This document shows positions 2,591 through 44,375 of a stretch of 64,000 nucleotides of DNA, piece after piece. Source of the DNA: Marsupella aquatica (Eukaryota > Plantae > Marchantiophyta); assembly GCA_973895155.1 (NCBI GenBank), contig OZ316891.1, forward strand, positions 23,559,899 through 23,623,898. The letters run 5' to 3'. Position numbers and translations under genes: made by a program. The notes under the pieces were generated by a model. That model was not told the origin of the DNA. It worked only from the letters and a program-made list of their open reading frames with translations, and did no database searches. Each line of letters begins with the position of its first letter. The first letter of the stretch is position 1.

Positions 2591-5500
2591 CCAGGAATCA
2601 CTCGGCCAGTTAAGGGGGTAAAGCAGGAATACACCCTCGAAACACCTTAGTATAGGGACAAAACAAGAAAAATATAAACAATTAGGGGCAACTATGGAAC
2701 CCGGGCCGAGGCCGGAGGTAAGAACGCTGGGGGTGAAAACTCGATTAGGGTTAGGGCGTGCTAAGCGTCAGCGGCTGGGAAGGATCAACGGGAGGAAGGA
2801 CCGGAGGAGGAGAGGGATAAGGAGCGCTTGCAGGAGACGGTGGCTCATTTGCGAGCAGGAACTAGGCAGACGACTACGGGAAGCCAACTACTGTCAGCTG
2901 CTTAGGCAAGCACTCGGGGAGGGAGTAGATACCAACGATCAACCTAAGGAGGGTATGAGCAACGTCAATCAAGCGGCACATTTCTGGGGATGCCTGTTCG
3001 AACGGGCAACTGAGTACATCAAGACTTACGAGGACAAAGAATCAGAAAGAGCAGCTCGAGAACGACAGGAGCTCGCTAGATTGTGGGAGCTGCAGAAAAC
3101 AGCTTTCTTAGGAGGCGAACTCATCAAGGCCGAGTTCTTGTGGACTCCTACTTCCAATCAGCTTGACGATCTTCTGTTTTGCAAAGACAGCATCATCGGC
3201 ATCCGAGAGGCCATCAAGAACTGCAACGACATACACTGGGAATTAAAGGGTAGCACAGAAAGGTGGACCCAGGCAACAGTGCTAGGAGAAACCTCCACGG
3301 CAGCTGAGATGAAGAGGAAGGGAGTCGTCAACGATGAAGCCACCCTGGCCAAAAGAACAAGGTTGGCGGCACCAAAGAAACCAGCCGGACAGCAGAGCAG
3401 GAGGCAGAGCGAAGCCGAGGAGGAGGAAAGCGACCCCATCAACGCCATTCCAACCAGGGATGACACCTGGAAGGGCTGGGCGGCAACTCTACCAGTGGAG
3501 GTGCAATTACATTTTGCACGGGAGGAGGATGCATGCTTTACGGCCATGCAGACCAAGAAGTACCAAGGCTTCATGGCCGGATCCGGCTTGGAAGCCTTTG
3601 TAAGATTACCATGGCTGAAGCCGGAGGTGCCGGATTCAGACCTATTAGAATTCGTTGGGTCATGGGAACCCGAGACCAATTGCACGAGGATATATGGGAA
3701 GGATTTCTATCTTACTCCCAAGGTGATTGCCGAAGTATTTGGCTTGCCGATAGGCAATAAAACCAAGGTTGATACCAGGAAGACCTTGCCTGACAAAGAG
3801 TTCCGGTCGTTCCCCGGACCATCAACGAAGAATGGCTTCTTCCGGAACACCTGTACCAACCCGCACATTGGAGAGATGATCGACTTCTTGCGGGTAACCA
3901 TGCATTGTAACTTGCCGAGGGCAGAGATCGGCAAGGCACAGGTCTATCTGGCAGAGAGACCAGACCCAAGCCGGGACTACAACGGGTACCTCCTCAGCCA
4001 ATTGAAGAAAATCTTGAAGGAGGAGCAGCAGGTAATCGGCGTGGGAAGCGTATCGCGGCTTGGCTATCACATGCCGCTGTTGTGCCGGTATGCCAGAGGT
4101 TAGACCTTTGCCCCGGTACTTCCCCTACAGGCAAGGGCACCAGTTCCGGAACAGAGACAGGCAACTGAGAAACCCAAACCGCCCGACAGTCCTACAATCG
4201 ACCAGGTGTTTAGACCAAGAATGGAGGACTTGCCAATGCAGCAACCAGGCATGCAGAGTCTGCTGAAGCTGCTGGAGAAAGAAAAGAGATCGGCATCGGC
4301 AATGACAACGGCAGCGGCAACAATGCAGGACACTGCCCCAGAGGTCAACTTAAGCAGACTTAGAAGGGAAGACCCCTCTACCGGAGTCTCAAGCTCTGAA
4401 TCTGAGGCATAATTGCTGGAAGCTCCTACCAACGAAGAAGAGAGGGAGAAGCCGGAAGTAGAAGAAGTAGAGGAGGCAGTGGAGGACTGCGGCCATGATA
4501 ACTCCGGCTATGGGTCGGACCATCACGTTCCAGGAGTGAGGACCTGTGGCCGGTTTATCCCCACACTTCCAAGGGTAGTACGAGGGGACCCCAACCAGCA
4601 GAGTAGCCCTGAGTCTCCTCCACCAGATGTTGCTCCCCCGAGCTTTGACGGCATAAAACAGACGGCGCTGGAATTTCAGGAGCGAATCAGGCAGGAAGAG
4701 GAAGCAGCCCTGGCTAGGGAAAAGCATTTACCAGGAGGAGATTGGCCGGAGGACATTAGGCGGCTAGCCGAAAAAGGAAGCAAACCTCTAGCCACGATTG
4801 AAGAGACCCGCAAGACGGCTTGGGAGCAGAGGTCGCGATGGGCGATGCCGATCACTTCTACTTACTCCACCTACGCTAAGAATAGAGCCAGGGAGTATGG
4901 TGAGATGTGTGGGGAACTTGTGCTCGGCATCTTTGGGGAGGAATTGGAGGTAGGACCCTTTTTCCATAGGGAGCAGTTGGAGTAGCGCCAATTGGAAGAA
5001 GCGCTGGCCTTGGAAAGAAGCAAGAAGGACGAGGTCATTTGTCGGCTTAGGGAAAGGGAAGCCGAAATCAAGGACCTGAGGGCGGCCAAGAAAGCCCAAG
5101 ATGAGCTGCGGATTAAGCGGCATGAGCTAAATATCATGCAGGGCCAGTTGGATGCCGCACAATCTGATAACCGGATGATCGAGAATCTACTGACGCGGAC
5201 CCAAGGAGAGTTGGCCGATGCGATCAAAGAGAGGGAGAAGTGGAAGCAAGAGCTGAGGAATGCAGAGGAGGCCCACATAACAGCTAACAACCGGGCCATG
5301 GCGGAGACCCAAAGAAAGGAACGGGCGTTGAAAGGGGAGCTCGAGAAAAGCTGCGGAGCCCTTGAGCAGAAGGAGGCCGAGTTAGGGAAATCCTATCAAG
5401 GGATTATTGCGCTGCAGCAGGAGCTTGCGTCCCTAACGGCCACCTTCAAAGCCAACCTAAGGGAGAAGGACGATATGCTCGATCAGACTTATGCCAAGAT

Positions 5501-7149
5501 GAACCAGATGGAGTCTGTCATCATTGCAGAGCTCGACAAGGAGCTAAGAGCAACCCGGGAGGAGAGGGCTACCTTGAAGAAGGAATTGGAGGAAGCCCAC
5601 AGGGAGCAGGAGGAGGCCAAAAACGAGCTAGGGGGCACGTAAGGACCTGGATGAGACCCAAGAGGAGTTGGAGGAAATCACGAGGAAGATGGAGAACCTA
5701 CAGTGGCGGGCCGACAACCAAACAGAGCGGCTGAAGAAACAAGCCGCAGTATTTAAATGCTTAGCTGCAGCAGGTCCATCTCCCGTTGGGGCGAACCAGT
5801 TACCAGGGGTGGTAATTGCCGAAGGACAAGCCGCGCCACCTGCACCCGTGTCGGAAGTAAGTGGGAAGGGGAAGGGACCAGCTGCCGAGCCAGCGATGAA
5901 GAAGAAGCGGAAACCTTCAGGGTCAAGGAGTAATATGACTCCACAGGCCGTGGTGATCAAGGAGGTAGACCCAGCACCGACCCGAGACAGGGTCACGGCT
6001 AAGGATCCAACTACCCTAGAAGAAGGGGAAGCCGAAGCCGTGGGAGTGGCTGAGGCCGAAGCCGTGGGTATTGCCGAGGCCGGTGTCGAGGCCGAAGCCG
6101 AAGGTGGACCCAGTCAGGCCGAGGGAGAGTTGACTCGGTCAAGGGCAGGTAATCTGTCAGTAGGCGGGCCAACGGCAGTGGCTGAGGAGGAAGTGTTGGG
6201 GGCGTCCATTGAGGATCCACCACCGGTGTCGTGACGGTGCAAGGGCGCCGTTCCTTTTAGAAAGGGCGGACGTGGAGGTAGGAGGCGTGAGTGGGCCGGG
6301 CGGGCGCTGATCTCCAAGTTTAAGATTAGGATCAGGACCAGGAGCGGCCCTAACACTTAGCTTAGTGGGATTGCGGTTCCACTGGTAGGAGCAACACTTG
6401 TGCTCCTGCCTTGCTGTACATAGGTAGATTCGGGCAAGTAGATTATTGTCAGGTAGGTTAGGCTTACGCTGCAAAGAATTAGGCGGATCCACTACCAGGA
6501 TAAGTACTTGGGCAGCGGGGAGCTCAGGGCCTCTTCTTTAGCAAGTTTTTAGTTTGCACCAGCCGGGCTGGGATCAAGTAGTAAGAGAAGCTCTCGGTTA
6601 GTTATACCGTGACCTTGTGTATATTCATGTTTCCTCATGCCTAAGAGCTGAATAGAGTTGGCCTCACGGCTTAGTTCGCAGAGCTTGTGTATGAGATGTA
6701 CTGTTTGTATGGCAAGTGCATGGTATGACTCAGTCAGAAGGAGTCATTTTACTATTTGTGTGTCGCATTAACTTGTGTGAAGAGTGCCCACATCAACTAA
6801 TAGGGAAAGGAAAGTAAGCAAGGGAGTGAGAGTTGGATGTGTCGAGCTGAGAGAGGTCTTAGCGGCTTAACCAAGCCTATTGGGGATCATTCCGGCGGCG
6901 GAATCCAAACATACCTAACAAGAAGGAGAGGTAGACAAGGGAAGGCCTAGAGTAGGCCGGCTTCATATCTCATGACCCGATGAAGGATCTGTCCAGTATA
7001 TGTGTGTAAAATGTTAATAGATGTAGAAGAGGTTAGCAGCGTCCCATGCCGCTAAGCCACGGAAACAGCCCCGCCAAGCGCGAAACCTGCGGGAATCGGC
7101 TTGTGCTGGGGGGGTTTCTTGGGTTTAGGGAGCCATGGGACGCACCACA
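2579..7149 (+). repeat. Family A 3' LTR (4571 bp), contains a long ORF
   Basis: TGTGATGC / GCACCACA imperfect inverted ends; same boundaries as 33529-38200. Confidence 0.9.
2694..6234 (+). pseudogene. LTR-internal ORF (PMD/Transposase_32-like domain plus coiled coil), interrupted by several stops and a frameshift
   Basis: Collinear with the 945-aa ORF at 34442; stops at about 4101, 4410, 4983 and 5640. Confidence 0.85.
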
Positions 7150-8331
7150 ACAGTCCTCACCCAGCCCGCTTCAATGCACCCTGTACACCTCTCAGTGGCG
7201 CTGCTAGTCCCATCATACACTCAGATTGCCTCACACACACACACATCCATGAGAGAAATGAGGCCTGAGAGGAAAACTCAATTAGATTCAAAGATGTGCA
7301 CAATAGTTCACTGAGAACACTTGATCCGAACACTAGGGCCGAAGGCTGTCTCCTCCAGATTGTGGCGTGCTTGCCCTGCAAGCCCCATGCTTGCCATGCA
7401 AGCTCAATCCTGAACTTGAGCCCGGCTCACTCCAGATTGCGACGGTAGATTGGACTCAAACCAATCCCGTACTTGCCTTGCAAACTCAATCCTGAACTCA
7501 ACCTCCTTCACTGCACTTCATTCTTGGGGGCACATACAGATCTCACACCTCCAATTCAGAACGTCAAGTTACGCACACATAGTTGACTCGACTTCAAAGC
7601 TCGTACCAGGCCTAATGGGGGTATGATAGCCATGACAGAAAACAGAAAACAGAAAACCTGTTACCAAGGGTTTATTTTCTGTTAACAGGGAAATTGTACC
7701 TGTTACCAGTAAGCTTGTCCCTGTTACCAGTTTTGCCTGAACCATAACGTGCATATCCACCACTCTAAGGTGCATATCCACCACTCTAATGGCATAATTT
7801 TTTGGGGGGCAATAAAGTTTAAAACAAACAATTATTTTGTGCCATCTGATGGATGAAGTGTACTATCAATCCTCCATTGACACAACAATTTATTGTAGAA
7901 GATAAAAAACATGGTATTAGGAGTGTGCCTAAAGAAACATTCATGCAAATCAATCTATTTTCATCGCCAAATAGTGACCCTTAGAGTGGGACCCACCATA
8001 GCACATGTCAATCGTGGAGTCCAAATCAACCCAATCTAAAGGAGTTGATTAAATGGACCTTCAAACGTCACAAACAAATGACAAATCACATCCTCGAGGC
8101 TTTGAAGACAGTAGACAATTTAATCAACTTACAAATTTTAAATAAAACAAGAGGTCATTCTTCCACAATGCACGTACATAATGAAGCAATGAATATCCGG
8201 TTTCCTAGAACTAGCGCCCGGCGCTAACCAACAAAGTCTCAATAAAACAACTAAAATATCTGTTGGAAAAAGACAAAATAGGGAATAACCGTTATATTGA
8301 ACGACGACCTATTGGGCAGTTTCGATCTCTC

Positions 8332-11300
8332 TCATAAGCCATTCAAGTTCTGCCTCTCCAGCACAAGCCTGACTTCGCCTAAAGTCAAAATAGGTTGGCT
8401 ACAAAGAGTCGACTCCTCAATCTCAAGTTTGAAAACATTTATGTACACCCAGTATAGATGTTTGCAAGGCATGTACGACTTGCCACGCGAATGTCGGAGG
8501 AAGAAGTCTTCACAAGAGCAAGCGGGGAAGATACAGATTTGGACAAAGTATGTGCTTGGTGATCGATGGTTCTCATGGGTTCGAATTCGAAATTGCTTTC
8601 CAAAAGCATTTCCGGTCTGAACATTCCATTCCCCATCCAAACTCATCACTTCTTGTCGTGCAGACTCCATTCGCTTTGTGTGACCCACAGTGAGATTAGA
8701 CCGAGGCCTTGAGTTCCTCCCATTCCGACTACCAAGTTGGAGATTTGGCTCCAAAAACCTTATTGTTTCTGGGAACACGTTAACATTTATCCTGAGGTCA
8801 AAAGCAGATGGCGCAGATCGACTCAATCCTGTTGTTCGCGCTAAGACAAGTCCTTGCTCTTCCAAGAATGTAATTTCAGGAGACAGGCTCGTGCCCTTCA
8901 GAACAGGCAAAATGTCAGGAAAAGGAGGAAGCTTCTGAACACCACGACGCGGATGACTCTTGTAACACGCTTGGTTTGGGCAAAACCAAATCATTTCGGA
9001 GATGGGTTCGCCCCTGAAGAGACGATGGCCCTTCACGACAATTCCGACAACACCTTCAGACGAATGGAAGCCAACCTTCTTGATACGATTTCGACACTCA
9101 TCGCGATCCAAACTCCCATTCAGTGTACCATTGCATTGCAGACCTGCTCCATACTTCGATGTCCGTTGCAACTGCCACTGCCCCGGAGGGACATCCTTCT
9201 CTAGCACAATCGTGCATGGAAGTTGATTCTGAAGTGCTGCTGGGGCACTGAGCGGAGGTTTTGAGGATCTTGTTGTTTGGGTTGTTTGAGGAGTATAGTC
9301 CAGTGAATCAGTATCACTCTCTGATGTGACCATACCTGAGAGATTCACCGCCTTTGTGACAGGATGATCAGAACTTGAGGGAATAGAAGAAAAGTCAGAT
9401 CTGTTCAGGTTCTTCCTTTTCAAACCACGAGTATTTGGTGTGGTTATTAGAACGGTGTCATGCCGATGAGAATCTTGTGGAGAGACAGTCCCAGTTGCAT
9501 GTCCCTTCCTCTTCATTGACTTCGTCATTATATCTCCATTCAGGGGAGTACTTCTTTCCAAATCGAATTCTGCTGCGTTAGATAGAAGCATATTAGTCGC
9601 TTCTTCAAACAATCTTGGCAAACCTGCTTGATCGGCGGAACGGAATGCCAATTCCCATATAGTTGGCCCCTTCCCCCGGTTCAAGCCTTTACGGTATGCA
9701 CTGTATCCGGCAACTTGAGACAGAGCACGGTTTTGGTCAACTTCGCAAGCTTCATAAAGACCGACCTTTTTCTTTGTAGCCGAGGCTTTCATGGACGCAT
9801 GCCTTGATTCTGACCCTGTACAGTTGGGGATCAAGGCACCTTCCTCAGCGCTTTTGCTCTGCCATACAAAAATGTCAACCGTAAGTAGTATTCTATTACC
9901 AGCGCCCGGCGCTGGCAACATAAATATGTAGAACAGGCCTGAAATACAATTTCAATGTTTAATACTGAATTCTAACTACATATTGGCTTCAATTTCTTGT
10001 ACTACTTGTTTTGACGTGTATGGAGAAAATAACCAGCGCCTGGCGCTAATATGAAGTTGATGAACATTACAGTCTAGATAGATGGATGCCTTACCACTCG
10101 AATAAAATTGCCCCACTGGCGCCAGCAAACAACCCACCAAGATATCCAGCTTTGCAGCATCTTCAGCTTTCCGGGGACACAGTTTCCTGATTGCCACCAC
10201 ACAACAATCTCTCGGGACACCCGGTATGCTGCCACAAATGATGGAGCATTTCTCAGTTTCTCCCAAAGTCTCCGATGCTCCGATTGACATTCTTCCAGTA
10301 CTCCTTCCTTGGAATGACAATGAAAAGATTGATAAAAGTGAAATGCATCAGAGCGCTCCCTCTCCGGGTCCGGGTGTCCACAAAAAAAACATTTCGCACT
10401 GCATTCCATCCAACTTGTGCATTGTCGGCCATAAATCCTTGGATGACAACCTCCTGAAGTTCATTTTCTTTGCAAACCTCAATCATCACTCTCCATGCCT
10501 TTTCAAAAGACTCAGTGTCTTCACCTTTCAACTCGCATGTGAAAATTGTACACAGTGCACGGAAATTGTGGTCGTAGACGTGTGCGCTGAAAGTAAACCA
10601 ATCCGTGGTGACATGCTGCATCACATCGAAACTTACCCAGGCTCCTTTGAGTCTTCCACCCGATTGCATCTGCCTCAAAAGATCCACACCGGAACCGTGA
10701 CCTTTCACAGTCATTTTAAAGATGTGAGGCCTATCGTTCTGACATCCCTGACCTGGAAGCAAATACCTCTGGAGAAACGACACATGAATTTTCCTCTGCA
10801 TTTGCGAGGGAAAATCTAATTCACCCCGACCTTTTTGGTCTATCTAATGCTCCGACAAAGAGATGCAAACTTCTGCGGAGTGGAAAGGACCATCAAAGAC
10901 TTCCACATTTCAGTTTCTTCGATATCGACCATGTCGTCAACATGTTCGCAGAGAGATTTCACTAAGGACCCTGTAGCAGAATTCAAGATCCCTGCCGGTT
11001 TTGATAGAGGATTGGCTTCATGTTTTTTTTAATTAGATCCTCAGCTATCTTCTCCGCACTCCTACAGAAGGTTTTTCTACCTGGATGGTTGTGCTCACCT
11101 ATATGAATTGCCAGGCGGGACATATGACTACATGTTTCCGCATCAAGTAATACTTGGGGGTACATGTAAAACAAACGGGCAGGGCAGTACTTCACACAAA
11201 AAGGAATCTGTTCGTAGTAATGACAAACAACACCTCCCTCTTCGATGAAAGATCCCACAGCATACTGACCACTGAGCTTTGGAGTACCCTGCCATGCCTT

Positions 11301-12077
11301 AGCATTTGCCTTCTTCTTCCTTTGGAAATAGTCGCAGGACTTGTTCCTGCATTCAATGAATCCCGTACAGGTAACCTTCCCAAACTGCCAAAGGTTTTTA
11401 GGATGAATAGTTGCAGTTGTTGGAAATATGCGTGTCCAAATGTAACAATCTTTGGCACGATCCATGTCCCTAAGCCTAGAGCCTTTAGAGAGCATCTTAT
11501 CAATGGGCGACAACTCAAACACGATGTTACCATTGTACTTAGTTGGCAGACAGGACACTTGTTCATGCCTGAAATCACCCGCTGATATGAACCGTGCCAA
11601 CTCACTATGACCAATTGATTTGAGTAACGTATCCATCGCATTGCGCCGGTACACGACCTCCAACTGCTTAGAGCTTCCCGGAGTCTCAGCTTTCACGACA
11701 GCGGGGAGCGGGCTTTTCTTCTTCGACGGTGGACTTAGAGTACGATCTCCATCCTCACTTGAAGAAATCTCAACCACATCACATGGAACCGGCGGGAAAC
11801 TGGACAGTCCTGCATGCTATCTTAAACGAACCGAGTACGAGATCCCTGCGTAGAGATGCCAAAACCGTTCATCGTCATCGACATTGAACGTTGCAGCATC
11901 CTCGATATCATCAATGGATTTGAGCTCTTGAACAATGGCCTCAATGTCATTCATCTTCAAATCAAATCTCCCACAGAGATACCTCTCCCGGACCTGCTTG
12001 TACGTATCTTCCATGGGGACGGGGATAGTCACAATATCTTCAGAACTGAATCGAGAAAGAACGATAGACCGAGACAT
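8332..12077 (-). pseudogene. MULE-type DDE transposase with GCM/WRKY-like Zn domain and C-terminal SWIM finger; in-frame intron 9859-10094; stops and frameshifts
   Basis: C..C..C/CPAR..HIGEHNHP (GCM-like); FDVMQHV and FMADNAQVGWNAVR (first two D); DAFH (CxxH position); SESRH (E); SWIM CSCEDF..PCKHL. GT..AG intron restores frame. Confidence 0.82.
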
Positions 12078-13038
12078 GGTGAACAAAAACAAAAACCGAG
12101 GGCTATAGCGTTTGAAAGAAGAAAAGTTCATGGTATTGTTCAGCTTATATCTGTCGAACCTGGGAATTTGACGTTAACCGATCCGTTTGTATACGACATA
12201 AAACATTGACAATGGAGGATCTGTTGGCACCATAAATGATTTTTGTCATTTTTTCCCCGAGAAGTCCGGATGTCAGACACGAACATATTGCTAAAAAGAT
12301 CACCAACCTTACTTAAACAGACCATAAGATATGACAAGGTATTGTCAAATTTTAGTAGCGCCTGGCGCTAACTAAAATACGCCACTAAAAATGTGTCTGA
12401 AATCTCGACATTCCAAACTAGCGCCCGGCGCTAGTATAGAATAAATTCCCTGAAAATGAACATTATGACCACATACCAGGTGGTAATTGGGAATAAATGG
12501 TGCCTTCAAAGGATGGTTTTGATGGATTATGGATGATAAATGAACATTTATACTAGCGCCGGGCGCTAGTATTACATTTGAGAAATATTTCTCCGTAAAC
12601 GATGTACTGAAGGATACTTTAATAAAATATGGGGGTGGAAAGGCCAAAATTTATGTCATAGCTCCTTCCAAAAAGACCTCTAAATTTCTTCCAGTTTATA
12701 CTAGCGTCGGGCGCTATTATAAGCATACTCTAAATTGTTCACCTTGATGGTCATCATTAATGCTAGCGCCTGACGCTAGTATTGATATGATGTTAGGAAA
12801 TGTCTTTAACGGTAACATTCAACGGTAACTTATGACTTCCGTGTGTGTTACGCATCTTCTACCGTTTGATTTTGGTAATTAAACCTTCTGTATACAGACG
12901 TTGGAAACCGCCAAACACCAGAGCTAATGGATTTCCTCTAGGTTATGTCATCCTCCCGCTAGAATATATTACACGTTCAGAGATGATTATAGTTCCATAA
13001 TTTCATTGTACGACAGTTTGTACGCTTCTAGAAGAACG
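12078..13038. promoter_or_regulatory. Divergent promoter region between transposase and ParB-MTase gene
   Basis: AT-rich spacer between head-to-head ATGs, containing 5 palindrome copies. Confidence 0.55.
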
Positions 13039-16000
13039 ATGGAGGTATTCCCCTCTTCTTCCAGAGGGTATAGTGCGGTTCATGACCAGGAGCGAGCTTA
13101 TTCTGAATCTTCGCAGTCTTCGTTTACTGGTTCAGTCTATACACGTCGTGTAACTCGTTCCTCAAAGTTGTTGCCGCTCACTTCTGTCAGCGGTGTTTTG
13201 GGTCCAAATCCTTTGCGAAGAAAGATGGACAACGTAGACACACTGGCGATCCAGGATGTTGCGGATTGCGTGCTTGCTGAGATTGATCTCATTTCAAAAC
13301 ATGTCATGTCTTTTGGAAAGGATTCTCATGGATTTGACAAGGAGCCGCCTTGAATCCCTCTGTGTCGATTGGTTCACATGGAGGTGGTTCATACTCTGCA
13401 GAAAGACAGCTCTTCCATCGAGAAGCTGAAAGACTCTTTTCGTAGTATGGGTTACAACTCTTCGATAGGGATGCGTTTCTATGTGCAGCCAACGGATGAG
13501 AACGGAATTGTTCTGACCTGTACCCAGGACATTCGTGATTCATGGGATCCAATATGGCAATTGGAGAACGAGAAGTTTGAGGCTGAATGCGAGGCTGACC
13601 CAGATTTTCTCGTCTTGAAGGATAAGATGTTCTCTGTATTCGATGGAAATCACAGGCTGTACTCCTGGACGCTTGTAACAGAGGAGAACCCGGACAATCC
13701 AAAATATCATCCTCGTGTGCTCTGTACAATATTTAAAGGAGACAAGGGATCTCTCATTGAAATTGAGGCAGCTATGCACACCGTGAATCAGTAAGTTCTC
13801 ATGATTTCCAGTTCTTTCCTTAAATCTTGCGAGTGCTGTATTTACTAGCGCTCGGCGCTGCTTATACATGAATTGTTTTTCATTGACTCTTACTCTCAAC
13901 GTTTGTTTGTGTAGGCTTGGCCAAGCAGTTGTAGAGCCTTCCTGGATCCTGGATGCGGACAGAATCAAACGAATTCTGGCGCATGACCTTGAGTATTACA
14001 GTAAACTGATTGACCCGGGTAATTTCAAGAAGTTTGAAAGCATTCGGCTGAAAACTCGGAAGGGGTCATGGTATACGAAGAAGATGCCACAAGAAGCACT
14101 TGTTTACATTCTTTGTGAGAATAAGATAAAGTCGTACTCGCATCAATTCAAACTCGACATGGAGGCAGTGGAGGCTCAAGGGAGTCCATGGTTGGCGGAC
14201 GAGATTTCAAAACGGCATGCGGCCATGATGAAAGACGCAACCAAAGATTGGGCAGTGAAGTCTTCAAAAATTACGCCCTTATTAAGTCATGAATTTGAAG
14301 ATTTCCTCAGTACATGTGCAGAAATGTATGTTGTCACATAGAGAAACAAGAGAGAGAAGAAGCCTGACACCGTTGTATGTACGATGGACCGTGCACGATT
14401 GTTCACCGCTGTTTCTGCTCTAGACCCAAAGTTACGAAGCACTTTACTTGTGGCACATTGCAATCCTGAGCTGCGGAGACAGTTTTTTCACCCAGCAAGT
14501 GTTAACGATGATCTAGTCAAACAGTGGTGCCACACTTGGATCACTTGGAATAGTGTGGAGGGAATTGTTGCTGGCATGTTACATTCATGTCTACGTGAAG
14601 TTGAGCAAACCATGCCCGCGAATAGATTGGAAGAGTGGAATTGTAGTTCGTTTGATGATCTAGTTCAGTTTGTTACAAATGAATTCAAGAGATTTGGTGA
14701 TTCCATGAAGAATAAGTTCTTTCACACTATGTGGCCTTCAAAGTACCCTGACAAAGAAGATTACACCCAGAGAAACCAGAAGCGAGCGAAGAGGTTTGTG
14801 TATAGGTTCTACATGCACATGGAGGTAACCAAACCTGATTACTTCTGGGCATATCCTGCAGCTTTTATGAAGTGGATTTCAATAAGTGAAGATGATGCCT
14901 TGGCTGATTTGTACTCTATGTACCCCACGGAGGGCATATTTCCTCCGAGACCAATGACAAAATGGGAGAGAACTCACTGCCCCTGGTATCTAGATACAGA
15001 TAGATGGGATTCTCCTTTTGATCAAAGGGAAAAAGATGCCTTCCATAAGCTTTCAAAGTCTCAGATGCCAGCAAAACTTGTGTCCGACATGAAGCAGGGT
15101 CTACTTGACGATGTAGACAAGTCTGCCACAAACTTGCAAACTATCTGTGAAACAACTGTTGTGCATGTGGACCGGAGTCGCAAACCTCACGCGAAAGCCA
15201 AAGCGGAGCTAGCAGCACCGAGCAAGTCTACTAAATCTGGAAAGAAGAGTAAGTATTGCTATCCATGATTTTGCCAGCGCCAGGCGCTGGCAAAAAATAT
15301 TTTGTTGAGGGTTGTTCTCTTTCTTGGTTATTAGGCTTCGGTTGCGACTTAAGTGAATTGCATTTGGTTAGCGTCAGGCGCTAGCTTCTTTCAATACTTT
15401 AAAAGTACTTATTCTAACTACAACCTGGTTATATTTTAGGAGGGAGGAAGTCTAATACGGTGGAAACGGGAGATACGAAAAAGGATGCTACACCTGAAGT
15501 TTCCGAGGCAAACACGGGAGCTCGATCGGACCCCATTACTCCAGTCGACAAAGCGAAGGTTATAGTTTCTATCGACGCCACGAGTACCAGGAAGAAACGA
15601 AAGAGAGCTGTCGAAGGTGGACAATCTTTAAGGGAGAGTGTTATAGCTTCTGGTTTCCAACGTGAAGTTGGAAACTTCAAAACAACTGTGTCTCGCCATT
15701 GCATGGTTGAGACAAGCCTTTCTGAATTTTTTGACTCGACCTTCAACAAGGAGGAGAAGCCCGAGTGGGTTAGTGATGTGGAGAAATGGGGAAAGGACCT
15801 CGTTAAGTTGGGATTTAAAGAGAAGGGAGTTGTTCGGGGGGGAAAAGTAAGATCGTTTGGAGTGGATGCCGGCTTCATTTACCTACCGATCGGGTTCAAA
15901 CCATCTATCATTGATAAGAAGGTTCCTAAATGGAACATTCCAGATCACTCAATGGCTAGATCTTTTTTCAAATCCATGGATCCATTTTTATCAAATGATG

Positions 16001-17130
16001 GGTTCCTTGTAATTCTACACAATGGGGAGTACGATCCCATGTCGCAAGTCATTGCTGCCTGTCAGGAGTCAAGGAAATTTCAGTGTATATGCTCGCATAA
16101 TGTTGTGATGTCTGACCCGATGTATGCGGCAAAGACAAACCAAGAGATGTTTACCCTCAGGCTCGACATATTTGGCCGAATTAATGGGAAATGTAAAATT
16201 CCCAAAGACCCCAAATTTTGGCCGCTGTCCATCAGTGAGGACCCTTTCGTTACCAATTTGATCGGACTCTCTTCGCTCAAATCAGATCCATTCCCGCAAA
16301 TGGAGTTTGCTGGAAATGCTCGTCTGTCTGTGGGTTTTATGCAATCTGTTATAGAGCTTGTCACACGACCTCGTGATATTTTTATGGATTGGACTGCTGG
16401 GGCTGGAAGCTCTTACATTGCTGGCGACTTCTCTGGACGATTTGTACTCGGGATAGAACACCGGAAAGAATTTATTGAAACCGCTTCAAAGGTTTTCATG
16501 GATTTGTTGTCTCCCAAAGAGATTGCAGTGTTACCTCCACCTGTTCCTACTGCCGACAGAAAAAAGAGAGATAAGCTTCGGTCGGTTCTCAATTTTGATT
16601 CTGATGATGAATCGAGTGAAGGTGGAGAGGAACAAGGTACAAGAAACTCCGAGGAGGAAAAGGAAGAGCGTCGTGCAGCTGCAGATGAAACCGATAGTGA
16701 TGACTCTTCCGAGTAATGTTCATAAACTCGTAAGCTTCTTTCTCCATTCCCGTCAATTCATAACATTTCTTTTGTTGTTTTGGGGAAAGGCGCCTTACAA
16801 AATGGACTTTGTTATATCAGGTCAGAGTGGAATGCAAGGAGACGATTCAAACTGCGGAGGAAGATCGCGAGACACAACGTAGAAACACCAGAAAAACTGT
16901 TTGTTCTTCCCTCCTATGCAAAGAAAGCCGCAAGGAAAGCAGAAAGTGCAAGGACACTTTGTTGGGAAAACAAAGGTCTTTGGTTACGAAGGGGTGTTGA
17001 CCGAAAGTTCATTAAACATCCTTATGTTGATGACTTCTCCCGCAGCCAATACGTAGATGATGAGGCTGTGTCCACGGACAGATCCCAGAGTACAGATTCT
17101 GGTTCCGACTCAGAATCTTTGGAACCGTGA
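13039..17130 (+). pseudogene. 4-exon gene, ~1220 aa: ParB/Srx-like domain plus beta-class N4/N6 DNA-methyltransferase-like domain; two in-frame stops (13351, 14339)
   Basis: Exons 13039-13790, 13915-15248, 15440-16712, 16821-17130 joined in frame by GT-AG introns; VFDGNHRL at 13642; FMQSVIELVTRPRDIFMDWTAGAGSS..GRFVLGIE resembles N6_N4_Mtase motifs X-I-II. Confidence 0.72.
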
Positions 17131-17439
17131 GAAGTAGTGGGTAGTTGAGGCTAAATCTTTTAGCAGCGCCCGATGCTTGTAACATCTGTATTATTTCCCT
17201 CTGCTGAGGGTCCTTTTAAATTGTTGATTTCTCTCTACTTGTTGATTACTTTTGACTTCTGTTCTTTACAAGCGCCTGGCACTCGCCAAATGGAATCTCT
17301 AAATGGCCGTTTAGTCTTTGTCGTTTCCTGTCAACGGTCATCGTCATTGGATACCAACTGCCATTTGGATTGTGTTCTTTAGTCAGTCGTCGGAAAGCCG
17401 TTGGGGACCATAGTTTCGGGATGATGATTTCATAGTTTA

Positions 17440-17790
17440 GGGACCGGGCGGAAGGGACGACTATAGTTTCAGTTTAGGTTTGTTCGGGACGACGAGAGTT
17501 GGGGACGTTGATAGTTGAGGACAACGATAGTTTCGGGAGGACGATAGAACGGGACGATAGAACGGGACAATAGAACGGGATGATAGAACGGGAGGGGAGA
17601 CTTTGTTTTGGGAGGACGATAGAACGTGACGATAGAACGGGACGATAGTTTGTTTGGGAAGACTTTGTTTCGGGGAAGACGATAGAACGAGACGTTAGAG
17701 CAGGGCGATAGAACGGGACGATACCTGTTACCAAGGCGAAGATAGTTTTGGGAGGCAATAGAATGGGATGATGATAGTTTGATGGTCGTT
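17440..17790 (+). repeat. Degenerate tandem array, core GACGATAGAACGG
   Basis: Many 13-bp-type units visible directly. Confidence 0.85.
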
Positions 17791-17950
17791 TTGGAACGGT
17801 AGTGTACGCGGACCTTTATCTGGTGTCTTAGTCTTTGCGGACCTTTCTTTGACCTTTGTCGGCTATAGCACTCGCGGACGACGTTCTTACGGGAGGAGAG
17901 GTTACATATTAGATCAGGATCTTTGAAACATGGCGAGTTAGTATGAGCCA

Positions 17951-18391
17951 ATGGATTGGGAGGCAGCTTTTCGTCCTTCTCGTGTGCGTCCGGAAGAGAG
18001 CCATTTTAGCTCTTTTGAATCGCGGATGGAGACTAAAGAAACTGAAACTTCCACTTTTTGGAACCGTCATGCTCTCCCGTATGATGAGGCTATTAGTCCT
18101 GGAGAGAAGAACATCCCTTGGATTGTCGATTCCCCTGCGCCTCCGTTCTCTAGTCGGTTTTCGTCTCACCCGGGAGTTCTTGTTGATGGGGTACTCCCAA
18201 TCGATCGAAGAGTACAAGAAATGTTTGGGCGAGTTGATTTTAAGGACAGTAATATTCCTATTGAACATTTTACGAGGGCTGTTCATCGAGGACCTTTAGA
18301 GGGATACGTTCGTTTGCGTGGTCTCGGCTTCAAGAAAGATCGGCGGAGAGAAGCAGCAGGAGTGGATGATGATTGCAACTCGGAAAGCTAG
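17951..18391 (+). CDS. Small MULE-borne ORF of unknown function (146 aa)
   Basis: Protein-level conservation with the copy at 23942-24394 (SRVRP.ESHFSSFES, LPYDEAIS.GE.NIPW, LRGLGFKK, AGVDDDC). Confidence 0.65.
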   Translation: MDWEAAFRPSRVRPEESHFSSFESRMETKETETSTFWNRHALPYDEAISPGEKNIPWIVDSPAPPFSSRFSSHPGVLVDGVLPIDRRVQEMFGRVDFKDSNIPIEHFTRAVHRGPLEGYVRLRGLGFKKDRRREAAGVDDDCNSES

Positions 18392-20039
18392 ATGGAAATT
18401 TCGTTTTGCTGATCGCTTTAAGCTAGCGCCGGGCGCTGCTAAAGTTTTCCGGATTTTGTGGCATTGAAGTCGACCTCAGCTCTGGCGTTAGAGTTTTCCC
18501 GGTTGTCTACTATTTAGGTTTTGGCTAGCGCCGGGCGCTATTGAAACGACAACGGATTTTGTGGGAGGGAATGGATCTTGACTATGTTGTCTAGGTTTGG
18601 ACGCATCTTGTCTCCAAGAAACGACTAGTTTTCTAGTTAGTTTTTGGCTAGCGCCGAGCGCTGTTCATGTATTAGTCGAAAACCTCCAACGGTGTCGACG
18701 GTGACTTCATGGATGGGATTTTTAGGCCAGATTGTTGATGTTGATAACTGCATTTTGTATCACTTAAGCCGAGCGCGTTTTCTATTTTGCGATAATATAT
18801 GCGAATGTTTATTCCGGCCTTTCTTTTCTACTTGTATTTGTCTTGGATTTTGTGTATCTCAATTGGCAGCCGTCTTTTATGTTTCAAAAAATTGTTTCCG
18901 TGTTGTTCTTTATTTATCACGAGGGTTTGGTGGTTTTGTTTTCTATTCTTGTACTTTCAAATGGAGATTTTGAGACCTTTTTTTAAGATCACTGTTCACG
19001 ACCATCCAAACACTGTTCACTGGTAACAGCTCCTTTTAACTGGTACCAGTTGCTATTTCCTATTACTGTTATCTGTTTGCTGTCGTTTGTAAATTCCCCC
19101 CTAACGGCGGTCTACCCCAGATTGCAATGAGGCCCGGCCTCACGCTTGCCCTGCAAGCTCCGCTCTGGCCATAGATCCCTTAGTGCTCTCCACCAGACAA
19201 AGGCCAGGACTCCCCATGGATCACGTAGCCTTGCCAAACTGAACTGTAAATGCTCCTCCTGCTGCCCCTCAATCAATGTCTCCTCCTCCCTAATGTACTC
19301 ACCACAAATCAAATCGACATCCTCCCCACAGTTTACAATCACCAATACATCACCTATCACCAAGGCTCTGTATCGGGGGAAAAGAACCCAGTTGTGCTGC
19401 CCACTAGAAAGAGCCACAATCCAGCTCGCAAACCTAGCAACCCGTTGCTGTGAAGCTTGGCTGATTACTCCCTGAGTAATAGCACCACCAAGCTCTCCCC
19501 AACACGCAGCGTCCAAGTCCAGCCTTGCTTGCACAGAGCTCCTCCCTGCTGCTCAGTCTAAGTGAGATCACACAACTGAAGTCCCCCCTGCCTCTACCGG
19601 GGGGCTGCTCTATATACTCTCTCCTTGAGCCCAAATGGGTGGATGCTACGCTGCTGGAGCCCCATCCCAGCCCTAACAGAGCCGCCACTATCTCTAACTA
19701 CTGAACCCTAACTCGCAGCTTTATTTCTATCTCAAATTGGCTATGTACTTTGGATTTGGCCCTCCTCCATGGTTTTTGCGAGCTTGCGCCTCCTCTCCTG
19801 ATTTCTCTATTCAACCATTTGCTGCGTGGATAGCAGCGTTGGAAGTGGCTTGAGCTCCTCTTTCCAACGAGGTCAATTATAGCCGATTTGGTCAAATACA
19901 CAGAGAGTTATGCCCCCGCAACCAAGAGGGGGTACTCACTCCTGCACTAACTCGAGTTACATAGCTAGCCCGAGTTTGGCTAACCTAGCTATCCTATCTA
20001 ACCCGAGTAGAGCTAACCCGTGGTGTCGGGTTAGGCCGC

Positions 20040-20390
20040 TACCCGCTACCCGCTATCCGCTATCCGCTATCCGCTATCCGCTAACCTAGCCTAAGCTGAG
20101 CCTGAACCCAAGCTTACCTATGCTAACCTGAGCCTGAGTTTAGGCTAACCCGCGTTAAGTCTAACCCGGGATCAATCTAGTCCGAACCCGGGTTAAGCCT
20201 AAGCTGAAGCCGTGCTTACCTGAGCTAAGCTGAAGCCGCGCTGACCTGAGCTAAGCTAAAGCCGTGCTGACCTGAGCTAAGCTGAAGCTGTGCTGACTTG
20301 AGCTAAGCTGAAGCCGTGCTTACTTGAGCTAAGCTAAAGCCGTGCTGACCTGAGCTAAGCTGAAGCCATGCTCACATAAGCTAAGCCGTG
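20040..20390. repeat. Tandem repeats: (CCGCTAT)n, then ~26-bp TGAGCTAAGCTGAAGCCGTGCTGACC units
   Basis: About 6-7 visible 26-bp units at about 20195-20390. Confidence 0.9.
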
Positions 20391-20619
20391 GTCGAGCTTG
20401 GGTTAACCCGAAACTGAAGCCGAATCCGCTAATTCCGGCCACAAGTTAACCCGTCACACTAATCAGGCCGTATCTTTCTTAATACACCTCCGTTTCTCGA
20501 GTGTTTTCTATCGATTTTACTCGCCTTGACCAGATCTTTCCAATGCTCTTTACAGATCCGGATTTGGTGACATATTGAAAGAGATGTGATCATCAATCAC
20601 CCGCGACATAGCTTTTATT

Positions 20620-20754
20620 TCCCTACTCTTAACGTCATGATTGCCCTCATTCTTGCCATCTTGCTAATTGTTATGCAATATCAATAGCTACTCCTTGCAT
20701 ACAGCAACCTACTTAATCAGATTACAAAATAAGAACCATGTCATTGGCGTCACA
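20620..20754 (-). repeat. LTR-like terminus fragment (family E)
   Basis: Closely similar to 48061-48196; both end in GGCGTCACA (TGTGACGCC on minus); truncates MULE copy 2. Confidence 0.65.
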
Positions 20755-23300
20755 TGAATCTTTCAAAGCTCTCATTGATATAGTTACGAATGATTTCAAG
20801 AGATACGGAGACTCGGTGAAGAGTAAGTTTTTTAATACAATGTGGCCCTCAAAGTATCCGGACAAAGAGGACTATTCTTTCAAGAACCAGAAGCGAGCAA
20901 AAAGGTACCTCTACTGATTTTACATCCACATGGAAGTAACTAGACCTGATTACTTCTGGGCATATCCTGCCACCTTTCAGAAGTGGACAGAAATATCAGA
21001 AGGCGACAATTTATCTGATTTGTACTCTATGTACCCCGCGGAGGGAATTTTCCCAGCGAAACCTTTAAGTGAATGGGAGAGAACCCACTGTCCATGGTAC
21101 CTAGATACAGACAGATGGGACTCGCCCTTTGATCACCGAGAAAAGGATGCTTTCCACAAGCTCTCTAAGTCCCAGATACCAGTCAATATTGTTTCTGACA
21201 TGAAGCAGGGACTAGCAGACGATGTAGATAAGTCCACAACAGAATTGCAAATGAATTGTGAGACCACAGTTGTTCACGTTGACCGAAGCCAAAAGCCTCG
21301 CGCAAAAGGGAAAGCTGATACTACTGTCCCAAGTGAATCAACAAGGTTCGGGAAAAAATATAAGTATAATTTGTAGTTCTTTGGTTAGCGCCTGGTGCTG
21401 CTATGCCATTCAATATATGTTAGATTTCATTTGTCTCATTTGTTCCATGAATATATATATATATATATTATATTTGCTTCCATCTCTTCAAGAAATTTGG
21501 CCAGCGCCGGGCGTTAGTATACTTTGCATTTTCCATCCGCTCAAATTCTAACATCGCCTTCCATTTGAGCAGGGAGAAAGTCAAACGCCATAGGCAGCGG
21601 CGATACAAAGATAGATGCCACCCCAGAGGCATCTGAAGCCAATACAGGGCCTCCATCTGACCCACTTACACCCGTCGAGAAAGGGAAGTCAATTGCTCCA
21701 GTAGATGCGATTAGTACTAGAAAGAAGCGAAAAAGGGCAATTGAAGGTGGATCATCCTCCGCTCGGGAAAGTGCGGCTGCAACAGGTGTTCAACGAGAAG
21801 TTGGTCAAAAACACTCTTTCAAGGCATTGCATGGTTGAGTCTAGCATCTCTGAATTCTATGACACAACGTTCAACAAAGAGGAGAAGCCTGACTGGGTAA
21901 ATGGTGTAGAGAAATGGGCAAAGGACCTCATGAAGTCGGGATATCGAGACAAGGGAATTGTCAATGGGGGGAAGGAAAGATCATTTGGAGTACACGCAGG
22001 ATTCATTTACCTTCCTACTGGTCTGAAACCATTGCTGCTAGATAGAAAAGTCTCGAAATGGAATACCCCCGACCACACACTGGCAACATCGTTCTTTCAT
22101 GGAATGGACCCATTTTTATCAGATGACGGAATGCTAGCAGTTTTGCATAATGGGGAGTACGATCCTATGTCTCAGGTTATATCCGCATGTCAAGAATCAA
22201 AGAAGTTTCATTGCATCTCAACACACAATGTTGTTATTTCAGTTCCTATGTATGCTCCAAAGACTGACCGACAGGTAAATTCCAAGTCGTGATCTCTGTT
22301 TTTAACACTCAAGAATGTGTATGAATGCATGGAATGACATATCATTCTTGGTTTATCTCGCAGATATTCACGCTCAGGTTAGACGTCTTTTGCCGAGTAT
22401 CTCATAAAGGGAAAGTACCCAAGGACTTGAGGTTTAGACCTCTGTCTGTTATAGAAGATCCCTCCATCACTAATTTAATTGGGTTTCCCACTCTCAATAT
22501 AGATCCAACACCTGAGATGGAATTCGTAGGGAATGCCCGTTTGTCGGTTGGATTCATGCAGTCTGTGATAGAGCTCATCACTCGTCCTCGGGACATTTTC
22601 ATAGATTGGACAGTTGGTTCGAGTAGCTCTTTTGTAGCCGGAGACTATTTTGGGAGGTTTGTAATTGGACTGGAGAATCGGAAGGATTTCCTTGAAACTG
22701 GTTCCAAGGTGTTCTTAAATCTACTCTCTTCTAAGGAAGAAGAAACCTTGCCTCCCCCAATTCAACCACCGGAAAAGAAAAAGAGGGACAAGCTCTGGTC
22801 TGTACTTAATTTTGACTCCGATGATGAGTCAAGTGGGGGGACAGCAGATGAAGTGGACGGGGAGACAACTCAGGGGGGGTAAGGAGCAATCTGCTGGCGA
22901 GAGTGATAGCGATGACTCTTCCAAGTAATGTTCTGAAACTCGTAAGCTTCTTTCTCTTTTCCAGCTCCTTCATGCATTTTTTACTATTCATTGTATCTTT
23001 CAATTGGTTGTCTTACTTGGTTATCTACCCAGGTCCGAATGAAATACCAGAAAGCGCTTCCAACTCAGAAGAAAAGTTTCACGTTTTGAAATGGATACAT
23101 CGAAGAAACCATTTGTTTTGCCGTCTTACGCTGAGAACGCTGCGAGGAAGGAGGATAGTCAAAGGACTCTGTGCTGGAAAAACAAAGGTCTCCGCCTTCG
23201 AAGAGGAGTTGACAGAAAGTTTGTTAGAAACCCGTATATAGATGACTTTTCTAAGAGCAAGTATGTCGATGACGAAGCAGTCCCTCCCGACAGATCATAG
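20755..23300 (+). pseudogene. C-terminal half of the ParB-MTase-like gene, diverged paralog
   Basis: MEVTRPDYFWAYP, GFIYLPTG and FMQSVIELITRPRDIFIDWTVGSSSS align with copy 1; stops, frameshifts and a mutated donor at about 21360. Confidence 0.85.
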
Positions 23301-23774
23301 AGCTCTGGATCAGAATCTGAAACTGATAATTGATGTATTTTTCTTTTCCAGATTTTACTAGCGCCGGGTGCTGTTATGAAAAGACATGTATTTCATTTCA
23401 TATGCTCATAATAAAAATCTAAAAACCACTTGTTGTCTTCAGTAGCACCGGGCGCTATTATCGAGGTACATGTATTTCTTATATAAAAGGTTTTAAATTG
23501 GTCTCTTCGTTTAGTAGCGTCGGGTGCTCCCCAAATGTGCAAAGTTTTCCATGAACCTTTACATCATAATATTGTTCATGCGTTCTGTCGCCATCCTGTT
23601 GCCATCCGTATATTGTCGTTACCTAATTAAGTTGGGTCTGTTTCAAAATAATCGTGTCGCAATTTGATTGTTTACTCAACGGTCCTCTGCCCGTTGAAGT
23701 TCGCATGTTACGGGTGTCCACCGATGACCGTCCTTTGGTAGTCACTATGTCAACCTTTTGGAGACGGTCGAGAA

Positions 23775-23910
23775 AGGTGCGGACATTGTCGATAAATGTG
23801 CGGACATTGTCAATCTGGTTGCAGACTTTAGGGAAGGTGCGAACGTTGTCGAGCTGGGTGCGGACGTTAAGGTGCAGATGTTGTCGACCTGCGTGTGGAC
23901 ATTGTCAAGC
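23775..23910 (+). repeat. Degenerate tandem array, core GTGCGGACATTGTC
   Basis: About 6 visible units. Confidence 0.75.
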
Positions 23911-23941
23911 TAGGTGCGACCACATGGAGAGGAGGGAACCA

Positions 23942-24394
23942 ATGTTGTTGGACGAGATGCTTGCCTTCTTCAGTGCTTCCCGAGTTCGACCGGTGGAGAG
24001 CCACTTCAGCTCCTTCGAATCAGTTTGTGTCGACATTGAGACCGAGACATCAACTTTTCAGAACTGTAATTCTCTTCCTTACGACGAGGCAATTAGTCTT
24101 GGGGAGAGAAATATTCCGTGGACTGGTGACCGACAGACTCCACGCAAATTTGACGATCGGTTCTCGTTTCATCAAGTCGTTCCTGCTGATGGTCAGCAGC
24201 CCATTGAACGTCGTGTGCAAGAGCAATTGGGGCGCGTTGACTTCCTTGATGCAAATTTTGTGGGCCCTGGCCAAGCTCATGGTGAGCATTGAGTTCCCTC
24301 TTCCAATTATATTCGGCTCAGGGGTTTAGGATTCAAGAAAAACTACAAGCGGGCGAGGGCGGGAGTCGATGATGACTGTCAATCACAGAGCTAA
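23942..24394 (+). pseudogene. Paralog of the small MULE ORF, stop at about 24290
   Basis: Aligns to 17951-18391. Confidence 0.7.
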
Positions 24395-26149
24395 AGGTGT
24401 TCCAATTGCAGTCGCTTAGGTTATTTTGGAGTTCAACCCTACAGCGATTAGGTTCCTAGGTAGCTATATTTAAGCTAGCGCCAAGCGCTGCTAAAGCTGG
24501 ATGCTTTCTATATCCGTTTTTCAGTACTGAATGTTTTGTTAGGATTTGGTAATCTGGGTAATATGTTTTTGCTCATTTTTATAGGAAATGCTTTTTGGAT
24601 CGACCCATTTTCCTCTCCATGGCGTTACACATGGAAGGGCGGGATTTGTAGTTTTAAGCTAGTGTTGGGCGCTACTTATACTCATTGCTTTCCGTCGCCC
24701 ATGTAATCTCGGTGATATTTTTTCAACCATTTTTGAAGTAAATGAATTTGTGATTGGCTCAATCTCCAATGTATGGTTTTCGTACATTGGAGATTGAGCC
24801 ATCGAGAGGAAAACCATACATTCCTCCAATGTATGGTTTTCAATCTCCAATGTATGGTTTAAACTAGCAATGAGATTCGGATTTTGTTGTTGTATGACCC
24901 TGCCTCTTTTGATTTGAATTGCCTCGTTTTCAGCCGCTCATTGTCTTCTCGATTGAGGTTACGTAGATTTTTGTTGAATTTTTCCTTCTTCTATGAAACC
25001 CTACCAGCTTTCCATTCGCTTCATTGATACCAGCGCTAGGCGCTGGTAATCATCGCAAATTTGGGTCGGACTACCCAACGGGATATTTCGTCCGGAATGA
25101 GACTGTTTTAATGAAAATGACTCAAATGGGCTTTAATTTTGATTGTTTGGAATCCTTTTTTTGGTCTGATTTTTTTGGTTTTTACCTCCAATTCTCCTGG
25201 TAACAGTAACTGTTTCCTATTACTATTTCCTGTTACTGTTTCCTGGTTCCTGTCTTTTGTAAATACCCCCCTACAAGTCGCACAGTTCCTCTCCTCAGCC
25301 AAGGCCAGCAACAAATTCTTTGGCAATTTCCGCTCTTTGCAGGACATCAGCAAAATTGAACTGAATTGAAGGCCTCTGGGTGACAACAGTTCAATCCACA
25401 ACCACGACAATAGCAGCAGTAATCCGGGTCCAAAGTCTGGTCAGGCACGCATCCCTCCTATCTTATCCACATTCACCAACACCACCTGCTTTCACAGTTC
25501 GCATTCTCTCGACCTCTTTCAGTTCATTTCATTTTTCTCCCTTCCTTTGCGCGAGCACATACTGCCCTTTTTGTTCAACAATTTCCTCTCTTTCCCTCTA
25601 TTCCATCGTCGAACCTCATCACCCACTCCCTCCACTATAACAATCACCTCTGTTACTTCCATAGCAGTCACGACCAAATGAGTAACGACCACTGATGCCT
25701 CCGCCACTCAAAAAAATAAAATAAAATAATCTCAAGACCTCCACACTACAACAACATTTCCTTTCAGCTGAATCTCCCCCTTTTTCCTCTAAACTTCTGA
25801 GCGCATAGATCATCCTTTGAAAGCTTTTCGCCCTATTCCTCCCGTCCTCCTTATCCCCTCTTTACTTGATCACTTTTCAACTGCCTCCATTTTGCCCTTT
25901 GCCTTCCTCTTCTCGTTTCCTCATTCCTCTCAACTCTTTCCCAAGAATCCCTCTAACGCCCTCCGCGCCTCCAACTGCCATCTCCAACATGTCCTTATGA
26001 ATTCAAATACTCCCCAGGCCGCCACATTCCTCTTTGTTTCTTTCTTTCACAAACAGAGAACTAAATCATTCCGAGCCGGACAAAAGCAAGTCGACTAGAT
26101 CTAGCACACTCCACTTCAATTGTCAAACATTTTTCCCGACAACACCGGG

Positions 26150-38200: not shown

Positions 38201-38204
38201 TTTT

Positions 38205-38222
38205 TGGCGCTAGATGGAGGGG
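38205..38222 (+). other. Primer binding site
   Basis: TGGCGCTAGATGGAGGGG just after the LTR CA, identical at 29671; the cognate tRNA was not identified. Confidence 0.85.
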
Positions 38223-38269
38223 GCATTTCTTAAGCCGTGAGATATGAAGTTAGAACGGAAGCGTAGGTA

Positions 38270-44370: not shown

Positions 44371-44375
44371 ATTCC

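Follow-up and report, generated by a model that had tools for sequence, protein, structure and literature searches.

What would a liverwort DNA transposon gain from carrying a spliced gene apparently built from prokaryotic domains? A 64,000-nucleotide stretch of Marsupella aquatica (assembly GCA_973895155.1, contig OZ316891.1, positions 23,559,899 to 23,623,898 of the forward strand; hereafter the window, in whose coordinates all positions are given) raises this question. It holds a transposon, element 1, with a broken transposase gene, a third open reading frame (ORF3) and a cargo gene whose product of about 1,220 amino acids (aa) combines a probable ParB-like domain with a predicted amino-methyltransferase fold. 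We conclude that this cargo system is real, conserved and unusual, and a candidate variant of transposon self-protection systems: the protein is kept as what its sequence indicates to be a disarmed enzyme, beside an array of palindromes in the non-coding DNA of its own element.

Element 1 is a mobile unit. An empty site was seen as a contig joint, 7610>19100 (skipping 7611-19099), in runs X1, X2 and X3, bearing out an earlier sequence-only reading of this DNA that had placed the cargo gene inside a mobile unit. Five letters (CCTAA) fit both sides of the joint, giving a target-site duplication of 2-5 bp from this one insertion, and taking TAA (7613-7615, 19102-19104) as the duplication yields the most symmetric ends, TGGGGG and, reversed, GGGGGG. 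The same reading had the gene lying within terminal inverted repeats (TIRs), which is right as to position, but the termini are only short, imperfect, G-rich inverted repeats of ~25-40 bp. All 30 bins were covered in each of four runs, by 268-3,171 records in every identity band, and the family therefore contains both near-identical and old copies. Contig depth in X1 (460-604 for near-identical pieces against 31-39 for divergent ones, depth being no copy number) hints at many family copies. These data support the assignment of element 1 to a multi-copy mobile DNA transposon family.

GT-AG splicing of four cargo exons gives 1,222 codons, with the motifs DGNHR at 13642, FIYLPIG at 15874, FMQSVIE at 16336 and DWTAGAG at 16387. 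Exons and motif positions stood as first read, but the uninterrupted frame of ~1220 aa did not: two in-frame stops, TGA at 13351-13353 (aa 105, exon 1) and TAG at 14339-14341 (aa 393, exon 2), persist under every best splice choice, and a 1,220-aa product is therefore not encoded here. The two stops are private to the window copy, with another letter making up 97-100% of the depth at 13351 and 96-100% at 14339 (X1, X2 and X4), and the Riccia homologue P0093 has Arg at the position of the first; the window copy of element 1 is a dead copy. Comparison supports the splice model, as P0093 is continuous across junction 1, a diverged X1 contig matches both exons flanking intron 1 with 99 other letters in place of the intron, and L001, a 1,118-bp piece from a distant relative that contains a single short intron, shows on our reading the same phase-2 junction ahead of exon 4. 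Exon 1 is 48% identical to P0093 over 98 residues (the P0093 gene model is without the DGNHR stretch) and exon 2 is 26% identical over 364 aa (E 1e-32); the ParB-like region is thus fused to the rest of the protein in P0093 too, and the LPxYA and FVDDEA-like motifs of exon 4 recur in Riccia P0071, P0092 and P0093. The view of a prokaryote-type cargo, now spliced and divergent from the transposase gene, is supported and, for the orientation, confirmed.

The middle region of the cargo, in exon 2, had no match in Pfam, PHROG, NCBIfam or PADLOC; relatives were not found in the viral contigs or plasmids searched; tblastn against phages gave a best E of 3 for exon 1 and 0.05-1 for Riccia P0068; and a word-index search for longer single-domain homologues returned 0 of 2,447 candidates, a near-length search one. 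Many database homologues are fragments. Pfam matches to TRAPP (E 0.003), NRN1 (E 0.002) and Anthrax_toxA (E 0.025, element 2 frame), all below cut-off, and PDB matches to CagT (E 0.34 or more) were set aside as chance. As a separate observation, three copies keep paired close 5' splice donors (16713/16730 here, ~22927/22943 in element 2, ~559/566 in L001), the first leading from exon 3 into exon 4 and the second to a product ending at TAA, which suggests two cargo isoforms, with and without the tail.

Exon 3 is predicted to form a beta-class N4/N6-methyltransferase fold, as first read: the predicted structure is a circularly permuted Rossmann fold in which motif IV precedes motif I. Pfam N6_N4_Mtase (PF01555) matches the cargo below cut-off (E 8e-4), with no other relevant Pfam family, and matches the Riccia homologue P0068 above it (27.6 bits). 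Motif IV reads YLPI (15880-15891) in element 1 and YLPT in the other window copy, and of the 38 family rows covering this motif, after removal of P0062 and the repeat artefact P0078, 0 have the canonical [DNSH]PP[YFW]; the DPPT of P0045, aligned to Pfam positions 2-212, sets the register. In all of these rows the third residue is Pro; seven have D or S first, and most have T, N or S in fourth place. The S-adenosylmethionine (SAM) motif I, DWTAGAG, and the acidic GIE (16450) are retained in element 1, and across the family motif I keeps its D in 47/50 rows and its two G in 39/50 and 44/50, with E/D after the next strand in 43/46. Judged from these alignments, the catalytic motif is absent across the family while the SAM-pocket motifs are kept. 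Passages of PMC4738411 describe the aromatic residue and prolines of motif IV as required for holding the base and activating it. The proposal that the protein marks DNA, as a writer of N4-methylcytosine (4mC) or N6-methyladenine (6mA), is not supported, as this motif is missing in 38 of 38 rows, and the accompanying caveat of a catalytically altered binder is supported.

In a quick tree of 23 rows, the 12 plant-type rows fall on one side (SH-aLRT 100) on long branches; the tree groups them and names no donor. Among the plant rows DPPT (Riccia P0045) is deepest, followed by Riccia D[LMI]P[STM] beside [YFA]LP[TNI], an order that fits stepwise erosion of motif IV, subject to long-branch caveats. 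Between elements 1 and 2, the nonsynonymous proportion (pN) of 0.13-0.19 is far below the saturated synonymous proportion (pS) of 0.72-0.91 in all five blocks, the ratio being computable in one block only (0.068). This supports purifying selection on the cargo, which is maintained as a predicted pseudo-enzyme.

Exon 1 probably carries a ParB-like domain. It holds DGNHR and TVN, and codon 13391 is Arg in most other copies, as in P0093; this Arg, the GxxR and the later Asn may correspond to the ParB boxes. NCBIfam returned a single match for exon 1, to the DGQHR domain (E 0.033; 13.9 bits, where the cut-off is 58.85), and PADLOC likewise one, to the PD-Lambda-5_A N-terminus (E 0.0038). In the ESM Atlas (score 0.95), 20 of 30 matches are unnamed, eight are DUF3723 (31% of members) and two ParB_N (11%). 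Relatives of PD-Lambda-5_A from 5 of 401 actinobacterial genomes have [DE]GNRR N-termini, and Pfam finds a weak ParB_N match (E 0.054) in one of the three scanned. Against these relatives exon 1 scores 23.5, compared with 10.5 +/- 1.8 (maximum 14.6) for 25 shuffles and 22.3 for a phage ParB domain, over 21 aligned columns and with a family picked after the match. Across the 401 genomes, exon 1 finds its best match in the C-terminal domain, carrying QGNHR, of an RHS protein (E 7.3e-4), for which Pfam names no family; the other eight of nine matches (E 0.04-0.09) and a 26-residue match to Nocardia L084 were attributed to chance. Exon 1 resembles ParB-parS, DGQHR/DndB and PD-Lambda-5_A in a helix followed by [DE]GxxR and a later Asn, which may be the ParB/Srx order, and differs from them in a ~40-residue insertion before DGNHR and in that no helix-turn-helix was identified; the palindromic sites are a further parallel. 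The ParB domain first proposed is therefore backed by weak matches that agree, but not by a significant match to the one phage ParB-methylase clade compared. In a side observation, exon 1 resembles fungal DUF3723 clusters (the eight ESM Atlas matches). DUF3723 is a frequent cargo of Starship elements, and ParB-like genes may be a recurrent cargo of large eukaryotic transposons; no paper linking DUF3723 and ParB was found in the literature searched, which was mostly non-subscription.

The palindrome AGCGCCNGGCGCT, which the sequence-only reading had not noticed, accompanies this gene. At up to one mismatch the window holds 21 copies against 0.04 expected (0/100 shuffles); at up to two there are 23, 16 in element 1 and seven in element 2 (21387-25032), with none in the remaining 48 kb. 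None lies in coding DNA, though coding sequence makes up 64% of the elements: copies are found in the transposase intron and in the first two introns of the cargo gene but not in its third, as well as in the divergent spacer and in the 3' spacers. Cargo intron 2 keeps two palindromes in both elements despite being no longer alignable, and the flanks prolong the symmetry to ~23 bp. All core mismatches (16/16) are C>T or G>A, which suggests that palindrome sites are methylated at times. A dimeric ParB or beta-class methyltransferase would be expected to recognise a site of this two-fold symmetry.

We tentatively favour, at not quite an even chance, a reading in which the cargo protein binds the palindromes of its own element and counters host silencing of its family by 5-methylcytosine without methylating DNA; palindrome binding, use of SAM and of a nucleotide, and the effect on silencing are what we infer. 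The protein would bind the two-fold symmetric sites as a dimer, and its disarmed methyltransferase domain would hold or sense cytosines in CG/CHG contexts, SAM serving as a structural ligand, so that host methylases would be blocked or a remover recruited at the engaged cytosines. The ParB-like domain might use a nucleotide to load at palindromes or to spread over the 11.5-kb element, and intact copies would serve the dead window copy in trans. An extended version, in which a nucleotide-gated clamp loads at parS-like palindromes and slides while the disarmed methyltransferase masks cytosines, leaving the whole element unsilenced as a eukaryotic ParB-parS, seems to us unlikely.

Several results weigh against the anti-silencing reading. 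L001 contains no such palindrome at up to three mismatches, in its 1,118 bp with one short intron. Coding regions are CpG-depleted (observed/expected 0.62-0.83), and the family has therefore not evaded methylation over time. On the protein side, the Pfam scan of exon 1 gave no ParB_N match, and its predicted structure reaches a predicted local distance difference test score of only 38.9, which leaves the ParB assignment weak; a profile of 76 phage ParB-methylase ParB domains scored exon 1 at 15.6, below the maximum of 19.4 among 40 shuffles, and in a retest five of 100 shuffles did as well, exon 1 not rising above shuffles with the insertion kept or removed. The transposase or ORF3 could bind the palindrome instead, and a Mutator transposase alone is reported, in a 2026 preprint (10.64898/2026.08.24.746577), to activate its cognate copies. 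The Riccia and Calypogeia homologues are known from sequence alone.

A role in transposition itself is a rather unlikely alternative: the cargo protein or the transposase would bind the palindromes and pair or compact the ends of a long element, methylation being irrelevant, much as MURB or TnpA help their transposases. An 11.5-kb element with short, imperfect ends could use such help, the palindromes spread through its whole length, and ParB proteins bridge and condense DNA; additional ORFs such as mudrB are known in Mutator-like elements (MULEs), according to parts of PMC6446971. Yet this leaves the kept SAM-pocket motifs unexplained, and the palindromes keep ~430 bp or more away from both ends of element 1 (the first starts at 8213, the last ends at 18662). 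The SAM pocket, the whole retained fold and the DPPT of the deepest plant row, Riccia P0045, would instead suit an active, non-canonical amino-methyltransferase whose 4mC or 6mA, placed perhaps at the palindrome, would protect the copies of its own family, or whose substrate is RNA or protein; a bacterial-type writer of 4mC, MpDN4MT1, with TSPPY, is in fact used by liverworts (excerpts of bioRxiv 2021.02.12.428880). Against the 0/38 rows with a canonical motif, and the need for its aromatic residue and prolines in base activation, we regard an active writer as improbable.

We hold it slightly less probable still that the gene is a selfish-maintenance module, a toxin-antidote or drive system acting in haploid spores or gametes, perhaps with ORF3, in the manner of prokaryotic ParB-methylase conflict pairs. 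The PADLOC match of exon 1 would fit, as would the RHS match; PD-Lambda-5_A is described in a portion of PMC9519451 as a compact restriction-modification plus abortive-infection system, and one PD-Lambda-5_A-type gene (L086) is followed by a D12 methylase. All these matches are weak, however, and driven by the [DE]GNxR motif, and no nuclease or toxin domain was identified. Neutral cargo, captured as in Pack-MULEs and without a role for the element, could account for a broken window copy and the many fragmentary homologues, but pN far below pS already largely refutes it, the stops private to the window copy and an architecture conserved from the window family to Riccia also speak against it, and we give it hardly any weight.

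Most of the transposon-encoded anti-silencing systems known to us, VANC and TnpA among them, come from flowering plants. Like the cargo, VANC of Arabidopsis VANDAL elements is an extra gene in a DNA transposon with a short motif in introns, intergenic and terminal non-coding DNA, and the VANC21 binding motifs show the same non-coding distribution in the relevant sections of PMC5735166. There the VANC motif is a 9-bp asymmetric one in tandem repeats, whereas here it is a dispersed, CG-rich palindrome of 13-23 bp; the cargo is built from prokaryotic domains, and Pfam, with N6_N4_Mtase as its only relevant family, gave no sequence link to VANC. By this analogy the cargo appears to work like VANC, membership apart. 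Compared with the beta-class methyltransferases M.BceJIV, CcrM, M.MboIIA, M1.HpyAVI, M.PvuII and rotifer N4CMT, it has the predicted fold with an eroded motif IV, in a domain that is part of a spliced transposon protein of 1,220 aa. Phage ParB-N6_N4_Mtase fusions (such as Vibrio phage D93 VPHD93_0127, P0098) would, if the ParB call holds, have their domains in the order of the cargo, and their methylase profiles match the cargo with HH probability 90.9 (E 1e-6, 52 columns). The phage protein is shorter, at 415 aa, and its DPPY is intact; the cargo reaches 1,220 aa, ~550 of them additional residues separating the two domains. The ParB parts show no significant match to each other, and no donor was identified. 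Apart from this comparison, the gene at L002 2080-3327 of Vibrio phage D93, whose annotation says no more than DNA methyltransferase, encodes a fusion of ParB_N and N6_N4_Mtase, and ~1,500 viral stretches match its patterns.

MpDN4MT1 is likewise a bacterial-type amino-methyltransferase in a liverwort, set apart by its description as a sperm-expressed host gene pair that keeps TSPPY (bioRxiv 2021.02.12.428880, in part); none of the 30 matches looked up named Marchantia. DIRS1 retrotransposons also carry an amino-methyltransferase domain described as likely inactive (passages of PMC4738411), but theirs is an unrelated group-2, PCIF1-like domain in a retroelement polyprotein, whereas the cargo has the circularly permuted fold and is a separate gene of a DNA transposon. 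We found no published description of a plant or liverwort transposon with ParB and methyltransferase domains, most subscription papers lying outside the search. The means by which VANC factors, starting from short motifs, affect an entire element are called enigmatic in part of PMC5735166. Here an unrelated prokaryote-derived protein stands beside a VANC-type motif array, with family relatives in distant liverworts, and offers a direct test case: one protein, one palindrome, and a predicted dead enzyme with a SAM pocket in a lineage that also uses a bacterial 4mC writer. If the ParB-like domain is a clamp, eukaryotes would have a ParB-parS-like device, which might serve as a tool for protecting the epigenome in a sequence-directed way; a sliding clamp would give a concrete mechanism by which few short motifs protect a kilobase-long element.

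Mutator membership, claimed by the sequence-only reading, was not established. MULE duplications are given as 8-11 bp in PMC6446971 (in part), which also records MULEs with short TIRs or none, and the single insertion here has at most 5 bp. MULE TIRs are commonly long. The transposase product comprises a Cys/His-rich N-terminal region, an SFD...ADN...DxxH...W-rich core, which we take to be a DDE core, and a C-terminal CxC...CxH finger that we take to be SWIM-like. In the window copy the gene is broken by one stop and three frame changes, other copies having an extra letter at 10380 and at 11022 by contig comparison. A Pfam scan gave no MULE family and a SWIM match below cut-off (E 0.95), and an IS256-like profile built from 20 proteins (29 loci, without L119) was not significant, its score being reached by 6 of 200 shuffles; in the sole HH alignment (E 0.16), ADN and DAFH fall on the second Asp and CxxH of IS256. 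Element 1 is likely a DDE element of MULE-related type. Beside this, MULE-like transposase motifs stand together with a TAA-like duplication of 2-5 bp and G-run ends (7613-7621, 19093-19104, 25263-25274), presumably reminiscent of PIF/Harbinger ends, and the combination may mark an unclassified DDE lineage.

Table 1. Features of the two elements, in window coordinates
Feature	Position	Strand	Remarks
Element 1, DNA transposon, 11.5 kb	7616..19101		ends TGGGGG... / ...CCCCCC; from empty-site joint and end comparison
Palindrome AGCGCCNGGCGCT, 16 copies in element 1 (<=2 mismatches)	8213..18662		extended consensus ~TTAYYAGCGCCNGGCGCTRRYAA; starts 8213, 9901, 10035, 12357, 12420, 12555, 12703, 12765, 13847, 15276, 15370, 17165, 17271, 18425, 18527, 18650
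Putative DDE transposase gene	8332..12077	-	two exons, 12077-10095 and 9858-8332; splice sites read from sequence
Cargo exon 1	13039..13790	+	low-complexity N-terminus, then probable ParB/Srx-like domain ~13354-13790; DGNHR 13642
Cargo exon 2	13915..15248	+	middle region ~360 aa and Lys-rich linker
Cargo exon 3	15440..16712	+	predicted beta-class amino-methyltransferase fold ~15690-16520
Cargo exon 4	16821..17130	+	C-terminal tail, conserved LPxYA and FVDDEA-like motifs
ORF3, 146 aa from Met	17951..18391	+	conserved in element 2 ~23920-24395 (+), frameshifted
Element 2, 5'-truncated diverged relative	20750..25271	+	cargo C-terminal half, ORF3, same right end as element 1 (25271)

Element 2 does keep the C-terminal half of the cargo, as first noticed, at 66-76% DNA identity. 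It has an extra intron in the methyltransferase domain (~22275-22365), none being present at ~16146 in element 1, and many database fragments of cargo homologues break at this site; from this pattern the element 1 lineage likely lost the intron. ORF3, likewise not noticed in the sequence-only reading, lies downstream of a 13-bp tandem repeat tract (17482-17723); it had no match in PHROGs, NCBIfam or PADLOC and is a candidate palindrome binder or partner. No Rfam match was found in 7600-25300. Tandem arrays at 20036-20412 (7-bp CCGCTAT; a 26-bp unit in 7.2 copies) lie just left of the element 2 truncation. The host site of element 1 is repeated, retroelement-like sequence: a repeated family with a long coiled-coil-rich ORF, in which element 1 sits, has four copies in the window (2600-7600, 26100-29900, 33500-44400), with blocks 79-100% identical, one 6,170-bp tandem duplication and one copy partly inverted.

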